A stretch of DNA of 31,643 nucleotides, from positions 1-31,643 of the forward strand of contig CAXXHA010000026.1 in NCBI GenBank assembly GCA_963662265.2, read 5' to 3'. The notes under the pieces were generated by a model. That model saw only the letters and a list, made by a program, of their open reading frames with translations. It had not been told where the DNA came from and searched no databases. The first letter of the stretch is position 1; every line of letters starts with the position of its first letter. Below, one piece after another: positions 4,701 through 22,672 of the stretch. This DNA comes from Spirochaetia bacterium. Lineage in GTDB: Bacteria; Spirochaetota; Spirochaetia; CADAEX01. A program made the position numbers and the translations under genes.

Positions 4701-6241
4701 ACCACGATATCTATTCGATTGAAGACCTGAGCCAGCTTATTTATGACCTCAGGAACGGAAACCCTTCAGCCAGGATTTCCGTGAAGCTAGTATCTGAAGC
4801 AGGTGTAGGCACAGTTGCCGCAGGTGTTGCCAAGGCAGGTGCTGATATGGTCCTTATAAGCGGCCATGACGGAGGGACAGGGGCAGCTCCTGTATCATCA
4901 GTCAAGTATGCGGGACTCCCCTGGGAACTTGGTCTTGCAGAGACACAGCAGACTCTTGTCAGGAACAACCTGAGGGGAAGCGTTAAGATACAGGTGGACG
5001 GACAGCTGAGGACAGGGCGTGATATTGCGATAGCTGCTCTCCTCGGAGGAGAGGAATTCGGTTTCGGAACAGTTTCACTCGTCTGCATAGGGTGTATCAT
5101 GATGAGAAAATGCCATGATAACGGATGCCCTGTGGGGGTTGCGACCCAGGATCCTGAACTCAGGAAAAATTTCAAGGGGAAACCTGAGCATATAATAAAC
5201 TTTATGATGTTTACAGCCATGCACCTGAGGGAAATTATGGCATCTCTCGGATACAGGACTCTCGATGAGATGACAGGCAGGAGCGAGTCTCTTGAGACAG
5301 ATACTGACAATCCTGCTGTAAGTGAGAAGAATCTTGATTTTTCCGCAATACTTGCCCCTTCAGATATTGAATTTAAAAATCCTGTGAAATTTGTTTCATC
5401 CCCGCTGAATGAATGCAGGGACGAGCTTGAAAGCAGGATGATCAAGGCATTCTCTGGCAATATTGAGAAGAAAACTGCAGGGAATTTTTCTGCAGATATA
5501 AGAAATATAAACAGGTCGACAGGAGCAAGGTTGTCATCGGTAGTCTCAGGGCTGTTCGGTTCAAAAGGTCTTCCTGAAAAGACGCTGAATGCAGTTTTCA
5601 AAGGGACAGCGGGACAGAGTTTCGGAGCATTTCTTGCGCCGGGTATAAGCCTGGAAGTTGAGGGAGAGGTCAATGATTATCCCGGAAAAGGGCTTTCAGG
5701 CGGGATGATTTCCGTGTACCCGTCGGGCGAAGCAGGGTACAGGGCAGGAAGCAATGTGATTGCAGGTAATGCGGCGCTTTACGGTGCGACATCGGGAAAG
5801 GCATTTTTTTCCGGTATTGCCGGAGAAAGATTCTGCGTGAGAAACAGCGGAGCAGTTGCTGTTGTCGAGGGTGTCGGCGACCACGGGTGTGAATACATGA
5901 CCGGCGGTATTACTGCAGTTCTCGGGAAAACAGGGAACAACTTTGCGGCTGGAATGAGCGGCGGTGTCGCCTATGTCCTTGATAAGGACCAGCTTTTTGA
6001 TACCAGGTGCAACCTCGAAATGGTGAATATTGAACCTGTAATTATGAGGCGGGACAGGGCTGAACTTGAAAGCCTCATCTTTGAGCATGTTGAAATGACA
6101 GGCAGCGAAACCGGAAAGGATATTCTTTCAAGGTGGGACGAGATGTGGCCGCTTTTTGTCAAGGTTGTTCCGTTTGAATACGGGGCTATCATGAAGGAAG
6201 CCTGGGCTGAAGAGGAAAAGAGCCTGCTGGTTGCAGGGTAG
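1703..6241 (+). CDS. gltB: Glutamate synthase large subunit, with two compensating frameshifts near 1953 and 2140
   Basis: SD AGGAGA 1695-1700. EHDNCGVGF (amidotransferase Cys), LEHRGA, GDGAGI, HQRYSTNTFPSW, HNGEIN, EPWDGPA, FAQVTNPPID, QGAKPGEGGQLPG, SPPPHHDIYSIEDL, CIMMRKCH..CPVGVATQ (3Fe-4S), GCEYMTGG. ORFs 1703-2008 and 2195-6241 share a frame; 1975-2181 bridges them. Confidence 0.96.
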
Positions 6242-6450: not shown

Positions 6451-7887
6451 ATGTCAGCTAACAGAAATTTTCTGGAAAAAGATAAGGTGAAGGCTGTTTA
6501 TCAGCCTGTCGAGGAAAGGACAGTTCATTACAGGGAATTTGCTCAGTACCCGGATGAGAAGATGATAGAGGGGGAATGTACAAGGTGCATGGACTGCGGA
6601 ACTCCGTTCTGCCATTCGGTAGGCTGTCCCCTTGGGAACCTGATTCCCGAGATCAACAGTTCTGTCGCAAGAGGCGACTGGAAAGATGCATATCTCAGGT
6701 TATCGGCAAGAAACAATTTCCCCGAGATTACAGGCAGGCTGTGCCCTGCTCTCTGCGAGGCTTCCTGTTCACTGTCAATAAGCGGGAGTTCTGTATCTTT
6801 CAGAAATGTTGAATACCGCATTGCAGAAAAAGCATTTTCGGAAGGGTGGGTAAATCCGCAACCTCCCGAAACTGAGAATGGTATAAAGGCGGCAGTGATC
6901 GGTTCAGGTCCTGCCGGTCTTGCTGCAGCTCAGCAGCTGCGGAGAAAGGGGTTTTCCGTAACTGTTTTCGAGAAAGAGAAACTGCCGGGGGGGCTTCTGC
7001 GGTACGGTATCCCTGCATTCAAACTTGAAAAATGGATTCTTGACAGAAGAATTGAAATACTCGGGAAAGAGGGGATTGTGTTTGAGACTGAAGTAAATGT
7101 GGGAGAGGATATTTCACCCGCATATCTGAAGCGGAGTTTTGATGTGATCGTCATGACACAGGGAAGCTCTGTTCCCCGTGATGTCAATGCTCTCGGGAGG
7201 GGGCTTGAAAACATATGCTTTGCGATGGACTATCTTTCAGGCATAAACAGGACGCTCTCGGGAGAGGAGAATGGTAAGAATCTTATCTCGGCCGAAGGAA
7301 AGCGGGTGCTTGTCATAGGCGGGGGAGATACCGGATCAGACTGTATCGGGTCTGCGGTAAGGCAGGGGGCTGATAAAATCTGGCAGTATGAGATTATGGA
7401 TGAGCCGCCCGAGTGGGCTGATACTTCAAACCCTGCATGGCCCTACTGGCCTGTAATAAAGAGAATCTCAACATCCCAGGAAGAGGGGGGGGAAAGAGAC
7501 TGGGGAGTCGAGGTTTACCAGTTTTCAGGACGTGATATTGTGGTTGAGAAGGCCTGGTGCAGAAAAATAGAATGGTATAATGATTTCGGCAGGGATGGAA
7601 AACCAGTGAGAAAGTACAGGACTGTTGAAGGATCAGAGTTTCAGCTTGATGTTGATCTTGTAATAATTTCAGCCGGATTTCTCCATGTAGAGCAGGGAAG
7701 GCTTCTCAACAGCCTCAAGGTGAAGTATGACAAAAAGGGCAATATAAGGACTGACGGAAAGGGGCGGACAACTGCGGATAATATATATGCGGCAGGTGAC
7801 AGCGCATCAGGCCCGTCTCTGGTTGCAAGGGCGATTAACAGCGGGAGGATTGCGGCAGAAGCAGTTATTGAGGATTTTGCTTTATAG
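6451..7887 (+). CDS. gltD: Glutamate synthase small subunit
   Basis: RCMDCGTPFC..GCPLGNLIP, NNFPEITGRLCPALCEASC, IGSGPAGL, GGGDTGSDC, YAAGD; follows gltB; SD GAGG. Confidence 0.96.
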   Translation: MSANRNFLEKDKVKAVYQPVEERTVHYREFAQYPDEKMIEGECTRCMDCGTPFCHSVGCPLGNLIPEINSSVARGDWKDAYLRLSARNNFPEITGRLCPALCEASCSLSISGSSVSFRNVEYRIAEKAFSEGWVNPQPPETENGIKAAVIGSGPAGLAAAQQLRRKGFSVTVFEKEKLPGGLLRYGIPAFKLEKWILDRRIEILGKEGIVFETEVNVGEDISPAYLKRSFDVIVMTQGSSVPRDVNALGRGLENICFAMDYLSGINRTLSGEENGKNLISAEGKRVLVIGGGDTGSDCIGSAVRQGADKIWQYEIMDEPPEWADTSNPAWPYWPVIKRISTSQEEGGERDWGVEVYQFSGRDIVVEKAWCRKIEWYNDFGRDGKPVRKYRTVEGSEFQLDVDLVIISAGFLHVEQGRLLNSLKVKYDKKGNIRTDGKGRTTADNIYAAGDSASGPSLVARAINSGRIAAEAVIEDFAL

Positions 7888-7972
7888 TGCCCGGAATAAT
7901 GCAGAATTTATACCTGCAAACAGTGCTTAAGGCTTATACTCCTTCTTTAAAATGCCCCGGGGCGGAATTATC

Positions 7973-8001
7973 TTTACTATATTTGTCAGGCGTTATATAT
8001 T
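7973..8001 (+). promoter_or_regulatory. Promoter predicting a leaderless pepT mRNA
   Basis: TTTACT (7973-7978), 17 nt, TATATT (7996-8001), 6 nt, ATG 8008; no SD. Confidence 0.55.
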
Positions 8002-8007
8002 TTTTAC

Positions 8008-9249
8008 ATGTTTGATAATAATTTTGAAAAAAAGCTTCTTGATAATTTTTTAAGATATGTAAAGATTGAGACAACTTCAGACCCGACATCAGGAAAGACT
8101 CCTTCCACAGATACACAGTGGATCCTTCTTGAAATGCTCAGGGATGAACTGGAATCCATAGGGCTTTCTGAGGTTGTTCTTGATGGAAACGGCTATATAA
8201 GGGCTGTAATACCTGCATCTGAAGGATATGAGAATGCGCCTGCAATAGGTTTTCTTTCCCATGTAGATACCTCGCATGATGTCTCAGGCAAGGATGTTAA
8301 ACCGATAATTCATGAAAAATATGACGGCAAGGCTATAAAGCTTGGGGAATCTGTTCTTGATCCCGAGGAATACCCGCTTCTCCTTGATTACGTGGGAAGA
8401 AAGATTATTACATCTGACGGTTCAACCCTGCTTGGCGCTGATGACAAGGCGGGAATTGCTGAAATAATAACAACTGCTGAATTTCTCATGCAGAATCCTG
8501 ATATAAAGCATGGCAAGATTGAAATCTTTTTCACTCCGGACGAGGAAATCGGGAAGGGTACTATCTTCTTTCCGTATGACAAGGCTGAATCAAAATTCTG
8601 CTACACTTTTGACGGGGATGCAGAGGGTGTTGTTGAATATGAATGCTTCAATGCATATACAGTCACTGTAAGAATACAGGGGCAGGTGATTCATCTTGGA
8701 TCTGCAAGGGGAAAGCTGGTAAATGCTCTCAAGGTGGGGGCTGAATTTATTTCCATGCTTCCGGGATCTGAGAGTCCTGAATCAACAGACGGAAGATACG
8801 GCTACTACTGTCCTCTTCAGATGAAGGGGGGGCTTGAAAGCGCCAAATTCCAGATACTTCTCCGTGATTTTGAAACAGAAGGAATGGAGAGGCGGATAAG
8901 CAATATCAAAATCATTGCAGAAACTCTGGAAAAGCTTTATCCGGGCTGTTCAATTGAACTTGAGTTTGATGAAAGTTATAAAAATATGAAAACCTACATT
9001 GATAAGGACAGAAAAGTTGTAGATTTTCTCTATGAAGCTGTTGAGATGACCGGTATAAAAATTGTAGACAAGATTATCCGGGGAGGGACTGACGGTGCAA
9101 GGCTTGCCGAGATGGGCATCCCGTGTCCCAATATTTTTACAGGAGGATCAAACTTCCACAGCAGGATTGAATGGGCTGCAGTTCCTGCAATGCTGAAATC
9201 CTGTGAAGTCATGGTTAATCTTTCTAAATTATGGGGAGACAAGGGGTAA
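8008..9249 (+). CDS. pepT: Peptidase T (tripeptide aminopeptidase, M20B)
   Basis: FLRYVKIETTSD, GFLSHVDTS, TSDGSTLLGADDKAG, FTPDEEIG, IRGGTDG, PNIFTGGSNFHSRIEW. Confidence 0.95.
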   Translation: MFDNNFEKKLLDNFLRYVKIETTSDPTSGKTPSTDTQWILLEMLRDELESIGLSEVVLDGNGYIRAVIPASEGYENAPAIGFLSHVDTSHDVSGKDVKPIIHEKYDGKAIKLGESVLDPEEYPLLLDYVGRKIITSDGSTLLGADDKAGIAEIITTAEFLMQNPDIKHGKIEIFFTPDEEIGKGTIFFPYDKAESKFCYTFDGDAEGVVEYECFNAYTVTVRIQGQVIHLGSARGKLVNALKVGAEFISMLPGSESPESTDGRYGYYCPLQMKGGLESAKFQILLRDFETEGMERRISNIKIIAETLEKLYPGCSIELEFDESYKNMKTYIDKDRKVVDFLYEAVEMTGIKIVDKIIRGGTDGARLAEMGIPCPNIFTGGSNFHSRIEWAAVPAMLKSCEVMVNLSKLWGDKG

Positions 9250-12574: not shown

Positions 12575-13942
12575 ATGAAAAATCTTGATTATGATACAGA
12601 TGATCTGATAGCTGCTCTTGCCACTCCCTGGGGGGAAAGCGCGCTTGCGGTAATCAGAACAAGCGGCAAAGGCTGCATAGAAGCAGTAGCTGCAATATTC
12701 AGCAACAGTAAAAAACTCATTAAAGCGGACGGCAACACCCTGCTGCGGGGGAATATTATTGATCCTGAAACAGGGGAGCCGGTTGATGAAGTTGTCGCAG
12801 GTATATACAGAAATCCCAGAAGCTATACCGGCGAGGACCTTGTGGAGATTTATACACACGGAAGCCTTCCAGGCATCAGAGCTGTTCTTGCTGCCCTTAA
12901 AAAAGGGGGATTCAGGGATGCAGGTCCCGGGGAATTCACTCTCAGGGCTTTTCTTAACAAGAAGATGGACCTTACCAGGGCGGAAGCTGTTCATGAAATA
13001 ATAACTTCAAAGTCACGAAAGGCGCAGAACCTTGCAATGGCAAGACTTTCCGGCAGGGTCTTTGATAAAATTGACAGTATTAAACAGAATCTTGCAGATA
13101 TACTCGCTTCGGTAGAACTGCAGCTTGATTATGCCGAGGATGAGGATGATCCCGGCGCAGGTATTGATCCTGATTCCCTTGCAGAAAGCAGAAGCGAGCT
13201 TGAAAAGCTTGCCTCAACCTACAGGATAGGGCGGCTTTACCAGGATGGTATAAAAATAGTACTTGCCGGAAAGACCAATGCGGGAAAATCTGCACTTTTC
13301 AATCTCTTTCTCAAGGAAGACAGGTCTATTGTTTCAGATATTCACGGTACAACACGGGATTATATCGAGTCATATATCTCAATCAAAGGTGTTCCTGTAA
13401 GACTCTTTGATACGGCGGGAATAAGGGATGCGGAGCACCCGGTCGAAGCTGAAGGGATAAGACGGAGCGAGCAGATAATAGACAGTTCAGATATAGTAAT
13501 CTACCTTGTAGACAGCTGTGAGGGAGTATGCGAAGAGGATCAGAAACTTCTTTCACTTTACCGCAGCAAGAAAATGATAAAACTGTGGAACAAGATTGAT
13601 ATCTGCAGGAATGATCCTCCTTCCGGGTATATATCTGTAAGCTCATTCACAGGGGAAGGTTTTTCTGAAGTTGAAAGCCTTATTCTGGAAACAGCGTACG
13701 GAGGGGAGCTGGCTGCTCTGACAGATGATACTGTTATTGATTCCGAAAGGCAGAAGATGCATATCGATAACTCAGTTGCTGCCCTTCTTGAAGCAGAAAA
13801 ATCAGTGGCAGACAGGATCCCGCTTGATCTTATTGCACCTGATATAAAAGAGGCGATGGATAACCTGGGAGAGATAACCGGAGAGATAACAAGCTCCGAT
13901 ATACTCAACAACATGTTTTCAAGATTTTGTGTAGGCAAGTAA
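12575..13942 (+). CDS. mnmE: tRNA U34 modification GTPase MnmE (TrmE)
   Basis: PRSYTGED, GEFTLRAFLN, GKTNAGKS, GTTRD, DTAG, NKID, C-terminal FCVGK. Confidence 0.97.
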   Translation: MKNLDYDTDDLIAALATPWGESALAVIRTSGKGCIEAVAAIFSNSKKLIKADGNTLLRGNIIDPETGEPVDEVVAGIYRNPRSYTGEDLVEIYTHGSLPGIRAVLAALKKGGFRDAGPGEFTLRAFLNKKMDLTRAEAVHEIITSKSRKAQNLAMARLSGRVFDKIDSIKQNLADILASVELQLDYAEDEDDPGAGIDPDSLAESRSELEKLASTYRIGRLYQDGIKIVLAGKTNAGKSALFNLFLKEDRSIVSDIHGTTRDYIESYISIKGVPVRLFDTAGIRDAEHPVEAEGIRRSEQIIDSSDIVIYLVDSCEGVCEEDQKLLSLYRSKKMIKLWNKIDICRNDPPSGYISVSSFTGEGFSEVESLILETAYGGELAALTDDTVIDSERQKMHIDNSVAALLEAEKSVADRIPLDLIAPDIKEAMDNLGEITGEITSSDILNNMFSRFCVGK

Positions 13943-14117: not shown

Positions 14118-15989
14118 ATGGATTTTGATGCAATTGTCATTGGGGGAGGGCATGCCGGAATTGAAGCTGCCCTTGCTGTTTCCCGTTTGAATTTCAAGAC
14201 ACTTTTTATAACCCAGAATGCGGATACAATAGGGAAGCTTTCCTGTAATCCCGCAGTCGGCGGGCTTTCAAAAGGGAATATTGTCCGGGAGGTTGATGCT
14301 CTCGGCGGCGAGATGGGAAACCTGATAGACAATACAATGATACAGTTCAGGATACTTAACAGGAGCCGGGGGCCGGCAGTTCAGGCGCCCAGGGCCCAGG
14401 CTGATAAGTTTGCATATAACCAGCTTGCAAAGTGGACTGTTGAAAGGCAGGATAATTTAAGCGTTTTCCAGGATACAGTCACTGATTTTCTTCTGAATTC
14501 CTCTGAAACCGAGATAAAGGGTGTTGTCACCGAGCGTGGCAGAAAGTTTACTGCAGGGACAGTAGTTCTTACAACAGGAACATTTCTCGAAGGGATGATA
14601 TTTATAGGCGATTACTCGTCAGTCTCAGGCCGTATCGGGGAACCTGCGGCAGTGGGCCTGGGAACAAGGCTCAGGGAAATAGGCTTCAGGGTTGGAAGGC
14701 TGAAGACAGGCACCCCCGCAAGGGTCAACAGGAGATCCCTTGATTTCTCTAAGATGGAACTCCAGGACGGTGACAGCGAAATACTTCCTTTCTCCTTTTT
14801 CAGGGAAAAAATAGACAGGCCGCAGGTGCCTTGCCATATAACATTTACAAATGAGAATACACACAAAATAATTACAGACAACATACACCGTTCCCCTCTC
14901 TACGGGGGCAAGATTGTCGGCACAGGACCCAGGTACTGCCCCTCGATAGAGGACAAGGTTATGAGGTTCCCTGACAGGGAACGGCACCAGATTTTCGTGG
15001 AGCCTGAGGGGCTTGAATCGGAGGAGATGTATCTGAACGGTATATCATCATCCCTTCCTGAAGATGTTCAGGAAGCTTTTCTTAAAACCCTTCCGGGTCT
15101 TGAGCATGTCGAGATCATAAGACCGGGCTATGCTGTTGAATATGACTATGTTGATCCGAGACAGCTTTATCCATCCCTGATGACGAAACGGATTAAAGGG
15201 CTGTTTATTGCAGGCCAGACCAACGGTACATCGGGATATGAAGAGGCAGCCTGCCAGGGGCTTATGGCAGGAATCAATGCTGCTCTCTTTCTGCAGGGAA
15301 AGGAACCTCTTGTCCTGAGGAGGACTGAGGCATATACAGGTGTGCTTATTGATGACCTTGTTACACTGGGAACCAAAGAACCCTACAGGATGTTTACTTC
15401 CAGGGCGGAACACCGTCTCTCGTTACGGCATGATACTGCAGACTCAAGGCTTCTTGAAAAAGGATATGATGCAGGTCTTGTCTCAAGGGAAAACTATGAA
15501 AAATTCTGTGAAAAGAGGGACAGGATTGAAGAGGTCAGGGAGCTTTTGAAAAACCGCAGGCTTAAGGAGAAGGATCTTCAGAAGATCGAAAATGATAAGA
15601 CTGAAGAGCTTATGAGAAAGCACAGGGGCAAGACTCTCGAACAGGTCCTTAAAGATCCTGATATTACTATAAACGATGTTTTCGCAGTTGAGAATGAGAT
15701 AGGATGCTCAAGCCTCCTTCTCAGGCAGATTGAACTCGATGTAAAGTATGAAGGCTATATTACCAGGCAGGAAAAATACATAAACAAAGTTGAGAAGATG
15801 GAGAATGTCAGGATACCTTCCGGTTTTGACTACAGCAGCATAGAGGGTATTTCAACAGAATCGAAGCAGAAATTCCTGGATATTCTGCCTCAGACACTTG
15901 GGCAGGCTTCCCGTATCTCGGGAGTGAGGAATTCCGATATTGCGGTCCTGATGATATATCTCGGGAAAAAGAAAAAGGGGCAGCAGTGA
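14118..15989 (+). CDS. mnmG: tRNA uridine-5-carboxymethylaminomethyl modification enzyme MnmG (GidA)
   Basis: [61 protein letters not shown]. Confidence 0.98.
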
Positions 15990-16606
15990 AAGAGCTTATA
16001 AGGAGGGGAGTTGAAGAACTTTCCATACAATACACTGAAAAACAGATAAACCTGCTTAACCTCTATGTCAATGAAATAGCACTGTGGAATAAAAAACTGG
16101 GTCTTGTAAATGCCGAAGGGGAGAAGCTTGTTATCCATCATATTCTGGATTCTCTTTCCGGTGTCGGGTTTCTGGCTGAAATGAATTTTGAGACTGCAGC
16201 AGATATCGGTTCAGGGGCCGGTCTTCCCGGTATACCTCTATCAATATTTTTTCCTGACAGGAAATTCACACTTGTTGAACGCTCGGGCAACAGGTGCGGT
16301 TTCTTAAGAAACTGCAAAGAGCTTTACAGGCTTGATAATGTTGAAGTTCTTGAAGCCGGGCTTGAGAATGTAGAAGCAAGGTATGACATAATCACTTTCA
16401 GGGCTTTCCGTGATTTCAACGATTTTCTGGATCCGCTTATGAAGAGGCTTAAAGCTGACGGGCATCTCTTTGCATACAAGGGGAAAATGTCTGAAATTGA
16501 AAAGGAAATGAAAAAATCCGGTCTTGGGAGTTATGAAGTAAAAAAAATCAATGTTCCGTATCTGGAAGAAGAACGACACATAGTTATAATCCCTCAGCAG
16601 CAGTAA
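15986..16606 (+). CDS. rsmG: 16S rRNA m7G527 methyltransferase RsmG (GidB)
   Basis: [26 protein letters not shown]; GTGA overlap with the mnmG stop. Confidence 0.95.
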
Positions 16607-16808: not shown

Positions 16809-18146
16809 TCAGGAAATTTTTGACAGCATGGAAAGCAGCTGCTTGTTGTCTACAAGATCTATAGTTCTTGCTTCGACAAATTTTTCAGCTGTATCAGTGA
16901 AGATTCCTGCTGTGATACACAGCGATTTCCCAGCCCTTATGTCCTTGCTCCTGAAGTATAAATCCCTCAGCATTATATCCCCTATCGAAGCGGAAGACCT
17001 TATAAATCTCAAAAGCGCGATATCTTCACTCTGGTCTGTTGTCAGTTCCGCTGTTATATCAACATAATCATTTTTTGCAGCTGTAATATCTGTTATCTTC
17101 ATATGTTCAGCCGGGAAAAACATAGGTGCAAGCTTTCTGCAGAGGTTTACAAATTCAGATGTGGGAGACATCAGGTAAATTTTAAGGTTTTTATTTGAAG
17201 CAAGCTCTGAATACTTTTTTCTCAATGCCTTAACATCCTTGTAATCGGGATGTATCTGCATTATTGTTCCGAACTGCTTCAATGCGTCTGTTATTTTATT
17301 ATCCTTGATATATGTCTGCGCCAGTTTGTAATGAAGGGCAAGACGGGTTGATGTTTCAATATCCTTATGCTTCAATCCGATTTCAAAATCTTCAATTGCC
17401 CGGGCGTAATTTCTTTTCGCGAGATTTATCTGGCCTGATTCATATGAAGCCGAAGGTCCGTATTGAGGATCTGGTCTCAGATGTGAATAAATTTTGTAGG
17501 CATTCTCAATTTTGCCAGCCTCGTTATATGCGTTACCAAGCAGGAATAGAACCTCTTTATCGCCCGGGTTTATTTCAATGCTTTTTCTAAGGTACCCGAT
17601 ACAGTCTGTAAATTTTCCAAGATAATAGAGTGATTTTCCGATGTAATGAATTGTCATTGCATGGTCAGGAATCTGCGTCCTGGCTGCTGAAAAAAGAAGG
17701 TATGCTTTTTCATAATTTTTCCTGTCAAACTCTATAACGCCCAGGTTGTAGTTTGTTTCAAAATGATCCTTGTTAAGCGATCTTACATATGCGAGGTATT
17801 TATAGGCTTCTTCAGTCTTCCCAGTTCTGAGAAGAGAAATTGCATACTTGAATGCTATATCAGCTTCATCAAGCTTTGGATTTGTGGAAGTCTGATCAAG
17901 CAGTACTTTGAAAAGATGTACCGCCTTGTCAAAAATATCTTCATTATAGTAAAGATTTGCCAGTTCAGATATCGCATCTGTATCTTTTGGATTCTGGGCA
18001 AGCCTTCTGTTGGCATGTTTTATAATCTGGTTCCTGTCTCTGTCGCCGGAGCCTGTAGATTTAAACTTTGTGAGTGCTAAAAACAAACCTGCAATAACAA
18101 CAATTATTACAGAAATGAATATCAATATAAAAATATAAGAGTTCAT
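16809..18146 (-). CDS. Membrane-anchored TPR protein with C-terminal degenerate Mrr-like restriction-endonuclease-fold domain
   Basis: N-terminal TM helix; several TPR units (NYNLGVIEFDRKNYEKAY, LFLLGNAYNEAGKIENAY); tail MSPTSEFVNLC...YVDI...IGDIMLRDLY...CITAGIFTDTAEKFV..IDLVD follows the Mrr_cat pattern. Confidence 0.8.
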   Translation of the reverse strand: MNSYIFILIFISVIIVVIAGLFLALTKFKSTGSGDRDRNQIIKHANRRLAQNPKDTDAISELANLYYNEDIFDKAVHLFKVLLDQTSTNPKLDEADIAFKYAISLLRTGKTEEAYKYLAYVRSLNKDHFETNYNLGVIEFDRKNYEKAYLLFSAARTQIPDHAMTIHYIGKSLYYLGKFTDCIGYLRKSIEINPGDKEVLFLLGNAYNEAGKIENAYKIYSHLRPDPQYGPSASYESGQINLAKRNYARAIEDFEIGLKHKDIETSTRLALHYKLAQTYIKDNKITDALKQFGTIMQIHPDYKDVKALRKKYSELASNKNLKIYLMSPTSEFVNLCRKLAPMFFPAEHMKITDITAAKNDYVDITAELTTDQSEDIALLRFIRSSASIGDIMLRDLYFRSKDIRAGKSLCITAGIFTDTAEKFVEARTIDLVDNKQLLSMLSKIS

Positions 18147-18154
18147 AGGTAATT

Positions 18155-18182
18155 ATTATATACTTGCGTTTATTGTTGTCAA
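18155..18182 (-). promoter_or_regulatory. Consensus sigma70 promoter for the TPR gene, near-leaderless
   Basis: Minus strand TTGACA (18182-18177), 16 nt, TATAAT (18160-18155), 8 nt, ATG 18146. Confidence 0.7.
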
Positions 18183-18195
18183 TTAAATAAAATTG

Positions 18196-18224
18196 TTGAC
18201 AAATTATTTCCAGAGCTATAGGCT
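18196..18224 (+). promoter_or_regulatory. Sigma70 promoter for the LysM gene, back-to-back with the TPR promoter
   Basis: TTGACA (18196-18201), 17 nt, TAGGCT (18219-18224); SD GGGAGG before GTG 18278. Confidence 0.6.
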
Positions 18225-18277
18225 TTGTATATCAGCAAAACTGCTGACTGCTCAATAAAAATTAGGGAGGCAGCCGG

Positions 18278-19441
18278 GTGGATTCCCCTGTAATTGGCAT
18301 TAAAATTGCTAATGGTACTTATTTCCCGATTCTCAAAGAAGAAGATAGAATTAAAAAAAGAGTAATATTGACACCTGTTGCCGAGGGGCAGACAGATGTT
18401 AAAATTGATATATTCCGGGGTGACGGGGAAGGTATGTTTAACCCTGTCTATGTTGCCAGTCTTATTCTTAACAATATTGAACCAGCTGCTGATAACAGTA
18501 TAGAAATAGAGCTTCTCATAGGTATCAGTGATGATAATATCCTTGATGCGGAAGCCTATGATCCGGTTTCGGGGGAAAAACAGCTCCTTTCGATAAGCAT
18601 GGAAGCTGTAGATGAAACCGATTTTTTCGAAATACCGGATGAAGAAGAAAGCACACCTTATTTCAATGCTGAAATGGCTGATGAAGATTTTGACAGCTTT
18701 TCACTTGATGAAGAAACAGGTGATTTCTCAGAACATGAAGACCTTTCTGATGAAAGTGATATATTTGATTCCGAAGAACTTTCGATTGAAGATGAATTTG
18801 ACGAAAATCCTGAATCAGATGAGCTTCCTCAGGAAGATGAGTTGTCTTTTAACGATGATCTGACATCTATCGATATAGAAGATGAAGAGAGCAGGTTTGA
18901 AGAACCTGCAGCAGCTGATATTCAGAATGAAGGTACTGATAATGCAGCGCCTTTTCTGTATGATTATGAAGACAGCAGAGCAGGCAGGAAGAATTCTGCC
19001 CTTAAAATTGCAATTGTCTTTCTCTCTATCGTATTCCTGATTTTTCTTGTACTTCTCATATATACAATAATCAAAAAGCCTGCCATGGCTGAAGAGGGGA
19101 TGAAAGAGGAGACAAAACAGGAAGTTGTTATCGGCGGTGACAGTGAAAAGGCTGAAAAACCGGTAAAAACACCTCCTCCCGCAGCCAGGAAACCTGCTGC
19201 GGCAGAAAAAAAGACTCCCCCTGCAGAGAAGAAAGCCACTCCTGTACCGGTTAAGAAAGCCGCTCCTGTTGCTGAAGCGGAAAAAAGTGTAAGGTACAGG
19301 ATAAAGAAGGGGGATACTCTCTGGGATATCTCTGCTGCGTATTACAGAACCCCCTGGAAGTATAAAAAAATAGCAAAAGACAATAATATAAAGAACCCGG
19401 ACCTTATTTTTACAGGCACCTATCTTAATATAAAGGAATAA
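18278..19441 (+). CDS. Bitopic membrane protein: Hsp70/DnaK substrate-binding-like domain, acidic linker, TM, Pro/Ala/Lys linker, LysM
   Basis: First ~107 aa align by eye with the DnaK SBD-beta; TM IAIVFLSIVFLIFLVLLIYTII; C-terminal YRIKKGDTLWDIS...IAKDNNIKNPDLIFTG is a LysM. Confidence 0.85.
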   Translation: MDSPVIGIKIANGTYFPILKEEDRIKKRVILTPVAEGQTDVKIDIFRGDGEGMFNPVYVASLILNNIEPAADNSIEIELLIGISDDNILDAEAYDPVSGEKQLLSISMEAVDETDFFEIPDEEESTPYFNAEMADEDFDSFSLDEETGDFSEHEDLSDESDIFDSEELSIEDEFDENPESDELPQEDELSFNDDLTSIDIEDEESRFEEPAAADIQNEGTDNAAPFLYDYEDSRAGRKNSALKIAIVFLSIVFLIFLVLLIYTIIKKPAMAEEGMKEETKQEVVIGGDSEKAEKPVKTPPPAARKPAAAEKKTPPAEKKATPVPVKKAAPVAEAEKSVRYRIKKGDTLWDISAAYYRTPWKYKKIAKDNNIKNPDLIFTGTYLNIKE

Positions 19442-19538: not shown

Positions 19539-19568
19539 TCGACATGCAGTATAAATAAATTATATAAT
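19539..19568 (+). promoter_or_regulatory. Candidate ftsK promoter
   Basis: TCGACA (19539-19544), 18 nt, TATAAT (19563-19568); SD GAGAGG before GTG 19622. Confidence 0.45.
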
Positions 19569-19621: not shown

Positions 19622-22600
19622 GTGACTGATAAAAAAGCCTTTATTTTTGCACTTTTTCTACTTATTTTTTCTTTATGGCTGACAGTCTCCATATTATTTA
19701 CCCTTTCAGGAGGGGGCGGTCCAGCCTTTTTCGGAGGATATTTTCTTTATAATACTTTTTATCATTCCGCATTTTATGTACCGCTTTATCTGGTATTCTG
19801 TTCATTTTTTCTCTTAAGGAAGAAATTTGATAAAAGCGATATAATTGTATTAATCCTTACCCTGGTCCCGTTTTTCACAACAGGATTGGCATTGAGGATA
19901 TATATAGGCGCAGGCAATACATCTCTTGAAAAGATGATCGTAAATTCATTCGGCCCGCTCAGCCCTGTTCTTCTACTACTGCTTGTTTTCATTGAAGCGA
20001 TTCTGATTATGAATGCTGCTCTTTTCCTCAGAAAGAATCCCTCCTTACTCGAAACTGTGTCAGGGAATATTCCGGATGTACAGAATACAGGTGAAATTGA
20101 TGAAGTACCGGCTCAGGAGAGTTCAGCTGCTGATGCAGGTGTGAGAGACGCAGATGCTTTTTCAGAGGCTGCAAAAATGAGTCCTGAAACAATATCAGAT
20201 ATTCAGGAAGATAATAATTCTGATGCAGATTCCTTTGAAAAGAGCACTTATTTCGTAAATAATACTGTTTCTGAAGAATATATGCATGACAGAAGTATTT
20301 CCGATTCTGATGAAGATCCTGTCAGTGAAGAAAGTGCAGGAGATGATAGTGATCAGAGGGAAAGTTTTAAAACACTGTCTCTTTCAAGTGTTTCATTACT
20401 GAAGGGAGGGAAGAGAGGTTCTGATATGTCTGAGCCTGAAGTACTGACAGAGGAAGTTGTATATCAGGATGAACCTGGAGAAAATTATGAGCCGGGTTTT
20501 GAATACAGTGAAGATGAAAAATACAACCCTGCTGATTACGGTCTGCAGATTCCTGACAGGAAAACAATTACAGAAGAGCCTGATGTGTCAGGCTCAATAC
20601 TTCCCGATGCAGATGATATTTATATGCAGGATGAGGCTTCCGGCTTTTCCGGCGCTGATGATGAAGAGGGTATGGCTACTGTAGATGGAGTGGATTATTC
20701 AGAGCCTGCATATTTCAGGCAGCAGAAAGATGCACCTTTTAAGTCAGATGAAATCCCGGAGCCGGAAATAGACAGGGAACCTTCTTCAGATAATTCATAT
20801 TATGAAGATACAGAATATGATCAATACCATGCTGTTCCTGATGAAAGAAATGCAGGGGAGTATGAACAGGAATCAGAAACTGCAGGGTATACAGAAAAGA
20901 CAGAAGAAGATTATTCAGATGAGATTTCAGTTGAATATGAAGAGGAATTCCCTGAAGAAATACTTGCGGAAGCTGAAAATGAATTCTCTGAAGATGTTAA
21001 AGGTTCTGGCATTCAGGCTGAAGAAGAAAGTTATGATCCTCTGACTGAGTATAACAGGGATATAGAAGTTGATGAATCCGGAGAAGAAATCTTTGACAGT
21101 GAATCAGATGATGAGTTCCTTGAAGATGATATTGAAGATGATATTGAAGATGATGGGCCTTCACAGCCTGACAACACAGCTATAGTAAAGCAGTATTTTG
21201 AATCTGCAAGGTTTATCAAGCCTTCGAAAAAACCTGGAAAATATGAAATTCCTGTTGAAGATGTTCTTGATTTATACCAGGAGGAATCTTATGACAGGAT
21301 TGATGCGAGGGCACGGGAAGAGGCAGAAGTCCTCAAAAAGACACTTGCCGAGTTCAAGATTGAGGCTGAAGTTACAGGTATCAGAAAAGGGCCTGTTATT
21401 ACAATGTTTGAAATTCTCCCTGCTCCCGGTGTAAAGCTGTCAAGAATAACAAATCTTGCAGACAACATAGCCCTGAGGCTTGCCGCATCCCGTGTGAGGA
21501 TTGTTGCGCCTATACCAGGCAAACATGCTGTAGGTATTGAGGTTCCAAACAGGAAAAGGGCTATTGTATCATTCAGGGAACTCATAGAAGTGGATTACAA
21601 GCAGTACAGGAAAGATGATCTTCCGGTTGTCCTTGGAAAAGATATTACAGGGGAGGAGCAGATTGTAGACCTCACTAAAACACCCCATCTTCTTATCGCA
21701 GGAGCGACAGGATCGGGTAAGTCTGTCTGTGTAAATTCCCTGATAACATCAATCCTCTACAAGAGGGCTCCCCGGGATGTCAAGATGATACTGATTGATC
21801 CGAAGATTGTAGAACTCAAGCTTTATAACGGGATCCCCCATCTTCTCACACCGGTAATTACAGATGCTAAAAAAGCTTACCAGGCACTCCAGTACTGTGT
21901 CTTTGAAATGGAGCGGCGCTATTCCCTCCTCGATGCACTCAGCTGCCGGGATATCAAGTCATTCAATAAGAAAATAAAGGAAGAAAAAATTGCGACAATG
22001 CCTCTTCCATACATAGTTGTTGTAGTTGATGAGTTTGCAGACCTTATGGCTACAACAGGCAAGGAGCTTGAATCAACTCTTGCAAGGCTTGCTGCAATGT
22101 CCAGAGCTGTCGGTATTCATCTGGTTCTTGCAACCCAGCGTCCGTCAATCGATGTTATTACCGGGCTTATCAAGGCTAATATTCCATCCCGTATTGCATT
22201 CATGGTTGCAAGCAAGACAGACTCAAGAATTATCATTGATTCAATGGGAGCTGAGATGCTTCTCGGAAAAGGGGATATGCTTTTCACCTCTGCATGGAAT
22301 CCCTATCCTGTCAGGATACAGGGCGCCTTCCTATCTGAAGGGGAAGTTGAAAGGGTGGTTGAACAGGTCAAGGAATACGGAGAGCCTGAATATATTGATG
22401 ATGAAATATTTGTCGATGATGAGGATGATGATTATATCTCCATGGAAGAAGAGACAATCAATGATCCCCTGATGAACAGGGCTCTTGAAATTGTTGCAAC
22501 TGCAGGTAAGGCGTCAGCATCCTATCTCCAGAGACGTCTCAAGATAGGCTACAACAGGGCAGCCCGCCTTGTCGAGGAAATGGAAAGGAAGGGAATAGTA

Positions 22601-22672
22601 GGTCCCCAGAACGGAAGCAAGCCGAGAGACCTTCTCCATATCCCGGATAATTTCAGGGATCAGCAGGATTAG
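19622..22672 (+). CDS. ftsK: DNA translocase FtsK/SpoIIIE
   Basis: N-terminal TM segments, long acidic linker, RIVAPIPGK..GIEVPN, HLLIAGATGSGKS, LIDPK, VDEFADLM, HLVLATQRPS, gamma domain SASYLQRRLKIGYNRAARL. Confidence 0.97.
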   Translation: MTDKKAFIFALFLLIFSLWLTVSILFTLSGGGGPAFFGGYFLYNTFYHSAFYVPLYLVFCSFFLLRKKFDKSDIIVLILTLVPFFTTGLALRIYIGAGNTSLEKMIVNSFGPLSPVLLLLLVFIEAILIMNAALFLRKNPSLLETVSGNIPDVQNTGEIDEVPAQESSAADAGVRDADAFSEAAKMSPETISDIQEDNNSDADSFEKSTYFVNNTVSEEYMHDRSISDSDEDPVSEESAGDDSDQRESFKTLSLSSVSLLKGGKRGSDMSEPEVLTEEVVYQDEPGENYEPGFEYSEDEKYNPADYGLQIPDRKTITEEPDVSGSILPDADDIYMQDEASGFSGADDEEGMATVDGVDYSEPAYFRQQKDAPFKSDEIPEPEIDREPSSDNSYYEDTEYDQYHAVPDERNAGEYEQESETAGYTEKTEEDYSDEISVEYEEEFPEEILAEAENEFSEDVKGSGIQAEEESYDPLTEYNRDIEVDESGEEIFDSESDDEFLEDDIEDDIEDDGPSQPDNTAIVKQYFESARFIKPSKKPGKYEIPVEDVLDLYQEESYDRIDARAREEAEVLKKTLAEFKIEAEVTGIRKGPVITMFEILPAPGVKLSRITNLADNIALRLAASRVRIVAPIPGKHAVGIEVPNRKRAIVSFRELIEVDYKQYRKDDLPVVLGKDITGEEQIVDLTKTPHLLIAGATGSGKSVCVNSLITSILYKRAPRDVKMILIDPKIVELKLYNGIPHLLTPVITDAKKAYQALQYCVFEMERRYSLLDALSCRDIKSFNKKIKEEKIATMPLPYIVVVVDEFADLMATTGKELESTLARLAAMSRAVGIHLVLATQRPSIDVITGLIKANIPSRIAFMVASKTDSRIIIDSMGAEMLLGKGDMLFTSAWNPYPVRIQGAFLSEGEVERVVEQVKEYGEPEYIDDEIFVDDEDDDYISMEEETINDPLMNRALEIVATAGKASASYLQRRLKIGYNRAARLVEEMERKGIVGPQNGSKPRDLLHIPDNFRDQQD
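21120..21154 (+). repeat. In-frame 12-bp tandem repeat (about 3 copies) in the FtsK linker
   Basis: TTGAAGATGATA twice plus TTGAAGATGAT, encoding EDDIEDDIEDD. Confidence 0.85.

Follow-up and report, generated by a model that had tools for sequence, protein, structure and literature searches.

Hsp70 substrate-binding domains (SBDs) are normally understood through the lid cycle that the ATPase domain drives. The bitopic divisome linkers ZipA and FtsN/DamX have one transmembrane (TM) helix, long flexible linkers, and a cytoplasmic peptide-binding or tail module and/or a periplasmic peptidoglycan-binding domain. Polar hubs of the HubP/FimV type consist of an N-terminal periplasmic LysM, one TM helix, a very acidic cytoplasmic region, a cytoplasmic interaction module and a C-terminal FimV domain. 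Here we analyze the gene of an SBD-LysM protein from a Spirochaetia bacterium (assembly GCA_963662265.2, G000; 3.77 Mb, 90.6% complete). The stretch of DNA analyzed, hereafter the window, is the entire contig CAXXHA010000026.1 (C26, 31,643 nucleotides), and the gene occupies positions 18278..19441 of its + strand, encoding 387 amino acids from a GTG start (open reading frame (ORF) listing). The closest described protein is TPANIC_0042 of Treponema pallidum, whose combination of a LysM with a predicted Hsp70 peptide-binding domain at the N-terminus was noted in print in 2026 (PMC13749626); TPANIC_0042 / TPASS_0042 is also listed as a LysM protein (PMC4403809). Its architecture as published is the same as that of the window's family.

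We found that the N-terminus of the window's protein is a genuine Hsp70 SBD-beta that lacks both the ATPase domain and the lid. Pfam HSP70 (PF00012) matches amino acids 20-186 onto positions 408-540 of the 599 in the profile (E 6.1e-5, 21.9 bits against a cut-off of 20.6), and the NCBIfam DnaK model PRK00290 matches amino acids 23-109 onto 408-496 (E 3.9e-5). Searched against the PDB with phmmer, the single sequence retrieves Hsp70 SBDs from E 2.7e-5 and the profile of 60 family members retrieves DnaK SBD chains at E 6e-16 to 1e-13. In hhalign, the family profile matches DnaK of E. coli K-12 with a probability of 97.0% (E 1e-10), amino acids 6-110 lying on DnaK 399-505. The AlphaFold2 (AF2) model built from the family alignment shows eight strands between amino acids 5 and 107 (predicted local distance difference test, pLDDT, 85-97), followed by a helix at 108-116 and then disorder to about amino acid 235. 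All top matches of this model in a Foldseek search of the PDB are Hsp70/DnaK SBDs (probability 1.00, E ~1e-8), with a root-mean-square deviation of 2.0 A over 107-108 columns to 4r5j_D and 1dkx_A.

A nucleotide-binding (ATPase) domain was not found by hhalign or in the Pfam coverage, as the protein begins at about DnaK position 399. The helical lid (SBD-alpha) was not found either: the AF2 model has one 9-residue helix and then disorder, and the hhalign alignment stops at DnaK 505. Compared with the DnaK SBD (E. coli DnaK 389-607; PDB 1DKX, 1DKZ and 4R5J), the family has the same eight-stranded fold and conserves the equivalents of the hydrophobic pocket and of Gln433, but it has no nucleotide-binding domain, interdomain linker or helical lid, its arch is Ala/Val where that of DnaK is Met/Ala, and the SBD is linked to the membrane and to LysM. 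Because two defining features of Hsp70 chaperones, the ATPase domain and the lid, were looked for and are absent, the SBD-LysM protein does not belong to that family proper and is a derivative in which the clamp alone is left.

The start of the gene is preceded by a Shine-Dalgarno-like GGGAGG in the intergenic sequence (18265..18270, +, 7 nt before the GTG), and the N-terminus aligns residue for residue with 59 homologues. There is no signal peptide or leader, and the family N-terminus opens directly with the SBD. The predicted cytoplasmic SBD-beta (amino acids 1-110, 18278..18607, +) is followed by an acidic, Phe-rich disordered linker (amino acids 111-235, 18608..18982, +; pLDDT 39-62) composed of 41% Asp+Glu and 9% Phe, with a net charge of -50. 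The 9-residue helix at its start leads into a degenerate copy of a family motif (amino acids 116-124) that is discussed below. A single TM helix spans amino acids 239-265 (18992..19072, +; AF2 helix with pLDDT 90-96, Kyte-Doolittle maximum of 3.27 at amino acid 244) and has R/K residues directly before it, on the predicted cytoplasmic side. The predicted periplasmic stalk (amino acids 266-336, 19073..19285, +; pLDDT 52-61) is rich in Pro, Ala, Lys and Glu (21% K, 20% A, 15% P, 15% E). The C-terminal LysM peptidoglycan-binding domain (amino acids 337-387, 19286..19438, +; pLDDT 86-97) matches PF01476 over amino acids 340-385 (E 7.4e-11, 42.3 bits against a cut-off of 20.9) and LysM chains of the PDB at E 4e-8 and 1e-6 (phmmer). 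Its AF2 secondary structure (strand 337-341, helices 348-356 and 359-368, strand 382-386) is the beta-alpha-alpha-beta arrangement. We disregarded a match to NCBIfam GltJ (amino acids 205-335, E 3.8e-5, with 23 bits where the cut-off is 450), which is confined to the TM helix and the low-complexity stalk. The first-pass annotation, made from the sequence alone, had read the N-terminus as tracking DnaK SBD-beta without ATPase domain or lid, followed by an Asp/Glu-rich linker, one TM helix, a Pro/Ala/Lys stalk and a LysM; profile and fold matches, composition and the AF2 model bear out each of these assignments.

In DnaK, the bound peptide is contacted by I401, F426, V436, I438, the side chain of Q433 and an arch formed by M404/A429, and the arch residues vary among Hsp70s and determine client selectivity (PMC9346034). 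T403, S427 and T428 make further contacts (PMC3561046, Table 1). By the hhalign mapping, the groove equivalents in the window's protein are I8, L31, V41, I43, Q38, A11/V34, I10, T32 and P33 (a T in the family consensus). We expressed conservation as the frequency of the commonest residue among 245 family members aligned to the hidden Markov model (HMM) of the N-domain (109 columns). This frequency is 96% at I8, 99% at A11, 91% at L31, 93% at T32, 87% at V34, 100% at Q38, 93% at V41 and 89% at I43. The ten groove-equivalent positions, one of which is I77, which we take to be the equivalent of I472, have a mean of 0.89 versus 0.60 over all 109 columns, and 8 of the 22 columns that are at least 85% conserved are groove positions. 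Charged positions near the groove are also conserved, yet unlike DnaK (K9 for E402, K27 for H422 and D44 for H439). This pattern fits the working peptide clamp that had been proposed from the sequence, and suggests a functional groove with fixed specificity. Since the two selectivity-setting arch positions are fixed as Ala and Val, the groove probably holds an extended segment of one specific partner and not unfolded proteins generally.

A protein homology search returned 506 homologous proteins at E<=1e-3. Precomputed domains place both PF00012 and PF01476 in 103 of the 120 homologues listed; the closest relatives of the window's protein, like that protein itself, are annotated with LysM only. 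Source names are "LysM peptidoglycan-binding domain-containing protein" and "Hsp70 family protein" (in metagenome-assembled genomes of Spirochaetia, Spirochaetales, Spirochaetaceae and Spirochaetota), and the JGI names include "LysM repeat protein" and "nucleoid-associated protein YgaU". An exhaustive search of 50%-identity representatives gave 109 clusters at E<=1e-30. The number rises to 862 at E<=1e-10, where the weaker matches will include LysM-only or DnaK-SBD-only proteins. In named GTDB genomes, loci with the N-domain are nearly all spirochaetal (Treponema, Sediminispirochaeta, Gracilinema, Spirochaetaceae and others), the sole exception being one record labelled only "bacterium", and the non-spirochaete loci (Psychrobacter and others) match LysM alone. 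Thus, wherever the source names the organism, the SBD-TM-LysM family is spirochaetal.

Within a sample of the phylum, 93 of 301 genomes have a match at E<=1e-5, LysM-only and DnaK-only matches included. Paired N- and C-terminal matches in one frame of 280-620 amino acids occur in the window's class (GTDB families f1-f4 and f6-f8) and also in other classes (f10, f24, f32 and f40), and the window query had no match in large families such as f16 (0/45) and f21 (0/38). There is one SBD-LysM copy per genome. The SBD lies within the first 12 residues in 236 of the 245 family members, and the window's protein shares the layout of the 59-member full-length alignment: N-terminal SBD-beta, acidic linker, single TM helix, low-complexity stalk and C-terminal LysM. 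The genome of a Treponema-rich family (G102) encodes a far-diverged member of 310 amino acids with a short linker at ~49.5-50.4 kb (N-domain hmmsearch E 6.9e-14, LysM E 7.5e-12), of which tblastn matched the LysM part only; an SLT gene and then mnmG follow it. From its position and the published description, this ORF is probably TPANIC_0042.

We surveyed the gene neighborhood in 90 loci besides the window, of which 20 were hand-picked across families and 70 came from a scan of named genomes. Twenty-three loci without a tblastn match to the N-domain were dropped (16 from non-spirochaetes, matching LysM only, and 7 from spirochaetes; of the latter, L026 and L028 do carry the family by HMM, with an SLT gene downstream). 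Counts are over the remaining 67 loci, using only those with enough flanking DNA; since these loci are related to each other and many of them come from Treponema, the fractions characterize the sample and do not count independent events. In 50 of 59 loci the SBD-LysM gene is followed, on the same strand and within 4.5 kb, by a gene of ~700 amino acids with an SLT domain, and in several loci the two open frames are separated by only a small gap or overlap (ORF tables). The gene of a membrane protein with TPR repeats and an Mrr_cat-like domain (TPR-Mrr_cat) is upstream and divergent in 24/56 loci, ftsK is downstream on the same strand within 8 kb in 16/46, and bacA is found between the SLT gene and ftsK in 10/51. 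Upstream on the same strand are rsmG (15/51) and mnmG (13/48). In the 20 hand-picked loci, the assignments of SLT, BacA, FtsK and TPR plus Mrr_cat are borne out by Pfam. The recurring order is mnmE-mnmG-rsmG, divergent TPR-Mrr_cat, SBD-LysM, SLT, BacA, FtsK, which we take to be the putative ancestral spirochaete arrangement.

In the window, ftsK directly adjoins the SBD-LysM gene, beginning 180 nt downstream (19622..22672, +, 1016 amino acids; Pfam FtsK_SpoIIIE 1e-62, FtsK_alpha and FtsK_gamma). On this adjacency the first-pass annotation had based a possible division- or pole-localizing role. That link stands insofar as ftsK recurs downstream in the relatives, but the immediate conserved neighbors are the SLT gene and TPR-Mrr_cat: the ftsK association is real but loose, and these two are the tighter neighbors.

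The downstream SLT gene is the orthologue of Borrelia BB0259/MltS. Both primers of the published bb0259 knockout (PMC8517470) match exactly in one Borrelia-type locus (L115 of genome G315), at 9016-9036 (-) and 6165-6184 (+), and bracket an ORF at 6489-8702 (-) with the flanks of 394 bp and 324 bp given in that report. The primers had no match in the other Borrelia-type genome (L033), and a family-wide pattern search then found G315. The bracketed ORF lies between ORFs of BacA and FtsK size on one side and the family homologue and a TPR gene on the other, and in L033 Pfam identifies the equivalents of BacA, SLT, TPR and M23/LysM, and tblastn that of FtsK. BB0259 is required for assembly of the periplasmic flagellum, motility and the wave shape of the cell (PMC8517470). 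Experiments have shown it to be a lytic transglycosylase, with anhydromuropeptides as released products, and it now bears the name MltS (PMC12279116); according to the two reports it is also needed for peptidoglycan turnover. The MltS orthologues start with lipoprotein-type signal peptides, so any contact between MltS and the SBD-LysM protein would be periplasmic.

The family homologue upstream of bb0259 (L115, 8635-9648, -; L033, 9301-10497, -) occupies the same site as the SBD-LysM gene, divergent from the TPR gene and upstream of MltS, BacA and FtsK. It has 337 amino acids, an N-terminus that matches the family SBD over 64 columns (hhalign 94.7%, E 5.6e-8) and, after a long acidic linker, a single TM helix close to the C-terminus. 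By consecutive numbering this gene is presumably bb0260. Among the open-access papers searched, none mentions BB0260 or BB0261 as a Borrelia gene.

From these observations we propose, with a probability of roughly one half, that the SBD-LysM protein acts as an ATP-independent tether across the envelope within a peptidoglycan-remodelling and division module. As a bitopic inner-membrane protein, it would expose the SBD to the cytoplasm and the LysM to the periplasm, a topology predicted from the positive-inside rule and the ligand of LysM. The groove would hold one specific partner by an extended segment, the acidic linker and stalk would serve as flexible spacers, and the LysM would fix the assembly to peptidoglycan. 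A cytoplasmic component could thereby be positioned at, or coupled to, sites of peptidoglycan remodelling or division, as with other bitopic linker proteins. The likeness to ZipA and FtsN/DamX is one of working principle: the folds differ (SBD-beta and LysM here) and there is no homology. Compared with the HubP/FimV hubs, the chain order is reversed, with the LysM C-terminal in the window's protein; there is no sequence relationship, and no FimV-type family is among its Pfam or NCBIfam matches.

The family preserves the bare beta-sandwich clamp alone, under strong selection, and ties it through the inner membrane to the cell wall. It is found across many spirochaete lineages, relatives of the syphilis and Lyme disease agents among them. 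Should the clamp bind a single specific peptide, this would be a new use of the Hsp70 fold and an unstudied component of spirochaete envelope biology, encoded beside MltS, which opens peptidoglycan for the periplasmic flagella and releases anhydromuropeptides. With one domain, one groove and one conserved motif, the family offers a testable entry point. The first-pass annotation knew of no characterized protein with this architecture. This holds for function, as no functional study of the family was found in the main texts of the open-access papers searched (TP0042/TPANIC_0042, BB0260/BB0261, and Hsp70 plus LysM in spirochaetes); the architecture itself was already known from database annotation and from the T. 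pallidum report. New here are a measure of the groove's conservation, the gene linkage to MltS/BB0259, BacA and FtsK, the Borrelia-type homologue without LysM, the lack of an MltS-type gene in the window's lineage and the FtsZ-tail-like motif.

Several observations weigh against the proposed tether. The groove residues are also part of the hydrophobic core, so that their conservation is no proof of ligand binding. MltS was rejected as a ligand of the cytoplasmic SBD on account of the lipoprotein-type signal peptides of its orthologues. The Borrelia-type homologue has no LysM (~30 residues follow its TM helix) and most of its groove-equivalent residues are changed. In families of other classes (f10, f24 and f32; L035, L037, L038 and L039), the SLT gene was not found downstream. 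It is not immediately downstream in the window either, where ftsK follows instead, and a 13-member MltS profile gave only weak matches to part of the SLT region in the window's genome and in G245 (E ~5e-7) and nothing in the 99% complete genome G145, while G288 and G210 score ~1e-200. As the window's lineage is thus without a detectable MltS-type gene, the SBD-LysM protein does not, judging from these genomes, strictly need MltS. Finally, a strong promoter-like site, an 11-of-12 sigma-70-like match (19539..19568, +; consensus match only), precedes ftsK in the 180-nt spacer, so that ftsK may have its own promoter and its co-transcription with the SBD-LysM gene is only putative. No terminator-like site was found on the + strand of this spacer.

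The tight or overlapping junctions with an SLT gene that is immediately downstream in 50 of the 59 loci could instead reflect a function confined to the periplasm. The SBD-LysM protein would then regulate or position MltS, a lipoprotein in the compartment of the LysM, through its stalk and LysM, and the SBD would be only an oligomerization or stability module whose groove has no foreign ligand. We consider this unlikely, since it is the SBD and not the stalk that is best conserved, with the groove as its best-conserved surface, and since the family persists without MltS in the window's lineage and without LysM in Borrelia-type genomes, where MltS is still adjacent.

The canonical SBD fold and the retained hydrophobic pocket residues of DnaK are also what a membrane-anchored general holdase would have, in which the lidless SBD binds many unfolded or nascent proteins at the inner membrane face without ATP and the LysM merely immobilizes it. 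The nearly invariant arch positions (A11 99%, V34 87%) suggest one fixed ligand instead. The gene is present in a single copy per genome within a cell-wall and division cluster, a Pfam scan found no J-domain or exchange-factor gene among the neighbors, and lidless SBDs presumably release peptides quickly, all of which makes a general holdase quite improbable.

The divergent neighbor suggests a different partner. In the window, the TPR-Mrr_cat gene (16809..18146, -, 445 amino acids) encodes an N-terminal TM helix, TPR repeats and a C-terminal Mrr_cat-like domain (Pfam TPR families; Mrr_cat E 2.8e-6), and this divergent-upstream arrangement is shared by GTDB families f5, f6, f7, f8, f10, f24 and f40. 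The TM helix is followed by K/R-rich sequence in 22/22 aligned members, which should place the TPR and Mrr_cat parts in the cytoplasm along with the SBD. The Mrr_cat match is weak and its conserved strand F-R-F-x-R-[ST] seems unlike a canonical nuclease motif, so that the nuclease site may be non-canonical; a PDB search with the Mrr_cat-like C-terminus gave an unrelated chain as the best match (E 0.047). A paralogue of 25% identity is encoded on contig C11 at ~199.7-200.7 kb. A 12-of-12 sigma-70-like promoter match faces the TPR-Mrr_cat gene (18155..18182, -; consensus match only), and the intergenic region (18147-18277) contains two near-identical 11-mers, ATTGTTGTCAA and ATTGTTGACAA, 12 nt apart.

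A pairing conserved in at least seven GTDB families besides that of the window, with a TPR part predicted to share the cytoplasm with the SBD, could point to transmembrane signalling or sequestration, in which the SBD would hold the tail of a cytoplasmic regulator, possibly the TPR-Mrr_cat product, and release it when the LysM senses a change in peptidoglycan. The pairing is nevertheless found in under half of the loci (24/56), no DNA-binding or sigma-factor-like partner is evident among the neighbors scanned, and a single TM helix between long disordered spacers would be a poor conformational conduit. A signalling role is therefore, in our view, very unlikely. Complex prediction of TPR-Mrr_cat (amino acids 28-444) with the SBD and motif (amino acids 1-135), run without controls, gave scores of 0.17 and 0.20 versus a mark of 0.32, which carries no weight either way on binding.

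Just after the short helix that ends the SBD, most family members have the motif T-Y-[DE]-[IV]-P-[DE]-F-[ED]-[LIM]-[DE]. The pattern [DENQ][FY]x[LIVMF] is present after the SBD in 205/245 members versus 20% of shuffled segments, and [ILVM]P[DENQA][FY] just after the SBD in 135/245 versus 1.6%. The window's protein and its nearest relatives lack the former; in this clade F-F-E-I-P-D is kept and followed by acidic residues, with the Phe and the aliphatic residue replaced by Glu, so that the motif is degenerate. The motif is also missing in most loci without a downstream SLT gene and in many with one (e.g., rumen-type Treponema), a distribution from which we draw no conclusion. The conserved tail of FtsZ is D-L-D-I-P-A-F-Y-R in the window's genome and D-I-P-A-F-L-R in E. 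coli, so that the core D-I-P-x-F is common to the post-SBD motif and the FtsZ C-terminal peptide, a five-residue resemblance that could serve as a lead only. The residues after the motif Phe are acidic in the family and basic in FtsZ. In the AF2 model of the first 140 amino acids of the Gracilinema caldarium homologue (L046), the motif region has a pLDDT of 79 (residues 111-120) and 58 (residues 121-130). One subfamily (e.g., P0073, P0092, P0120, L059 and L062) has a second motif, approximately E-E-P-x-L-T-G-E-[ST]-Y-P-V-x(3)-D-R-R-K-E, just before the TM helix, which is absent from the window's protein.

The shared core, its enrichment over shuffled segments and the recurrence of ftsK downstream would suit a divisome tether whose post-SBD motif mimics the FtsZ C-terminal peptide, docking on FtsA-type proteins or serving as a pseudo-substrate displaced by the FtsZ tail, but we regard this as highly doubtful given that the motif is degenerate in the window's own clade, that the flanking charges are opposite, that AF2 placed the motif without confidence in a canonical member, and that a five-residue likeness to one of many short motifs can be chance. 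The most far-reaching version, which we offer as a long shot, is that the SBD is a dedicated reader of D-I-P-x-F-type tails. Its own motif copy would be a pseudo-substrate or docking element and its true ligand the FtsZ C-terminal peptide (or the motif would dock on FtsA), making the protein a spirochaete-specific tether of Z-ring, membrane and peptidoglycan that combines ZipA-like and FtsN-like roles and brings MltS to sites of division and flagellar-motor insertion. Were this so, it would be the first Hsp70 SBD recruited as a fixed-specificity, ATP-independent adaptor.

The remainder of the window's locus follows the family order in part. mnmG and rsmG lie just upstream of the SBD-LysM locus (14118-16606, +), preceded by mnmE (12575-13942). 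The order downstream (SBD-LysM, ftsK, nucleoside symporter) is the same in G145, a genome of the same family (L034), and the direct abutment of ftsK in the window is explained by the MltS and BacA genes missing from this site in this lineage. The BacA gene of the window's genome is on another contig. The main SLT protein of this genome, which is not an MltS orthologue, is encoded on contig C36 (12236-13681, +) and has 481 amino acids, a signal peptide and two C-terminal LysM-like repeats. The FtsK of the window carries an acidic low-complexity insert of ~400 residues between its membrane segments and the alpha domain, which begins at amino acid 543, and this insert is like the acidic linker of the SBD-LysM protein in composition.

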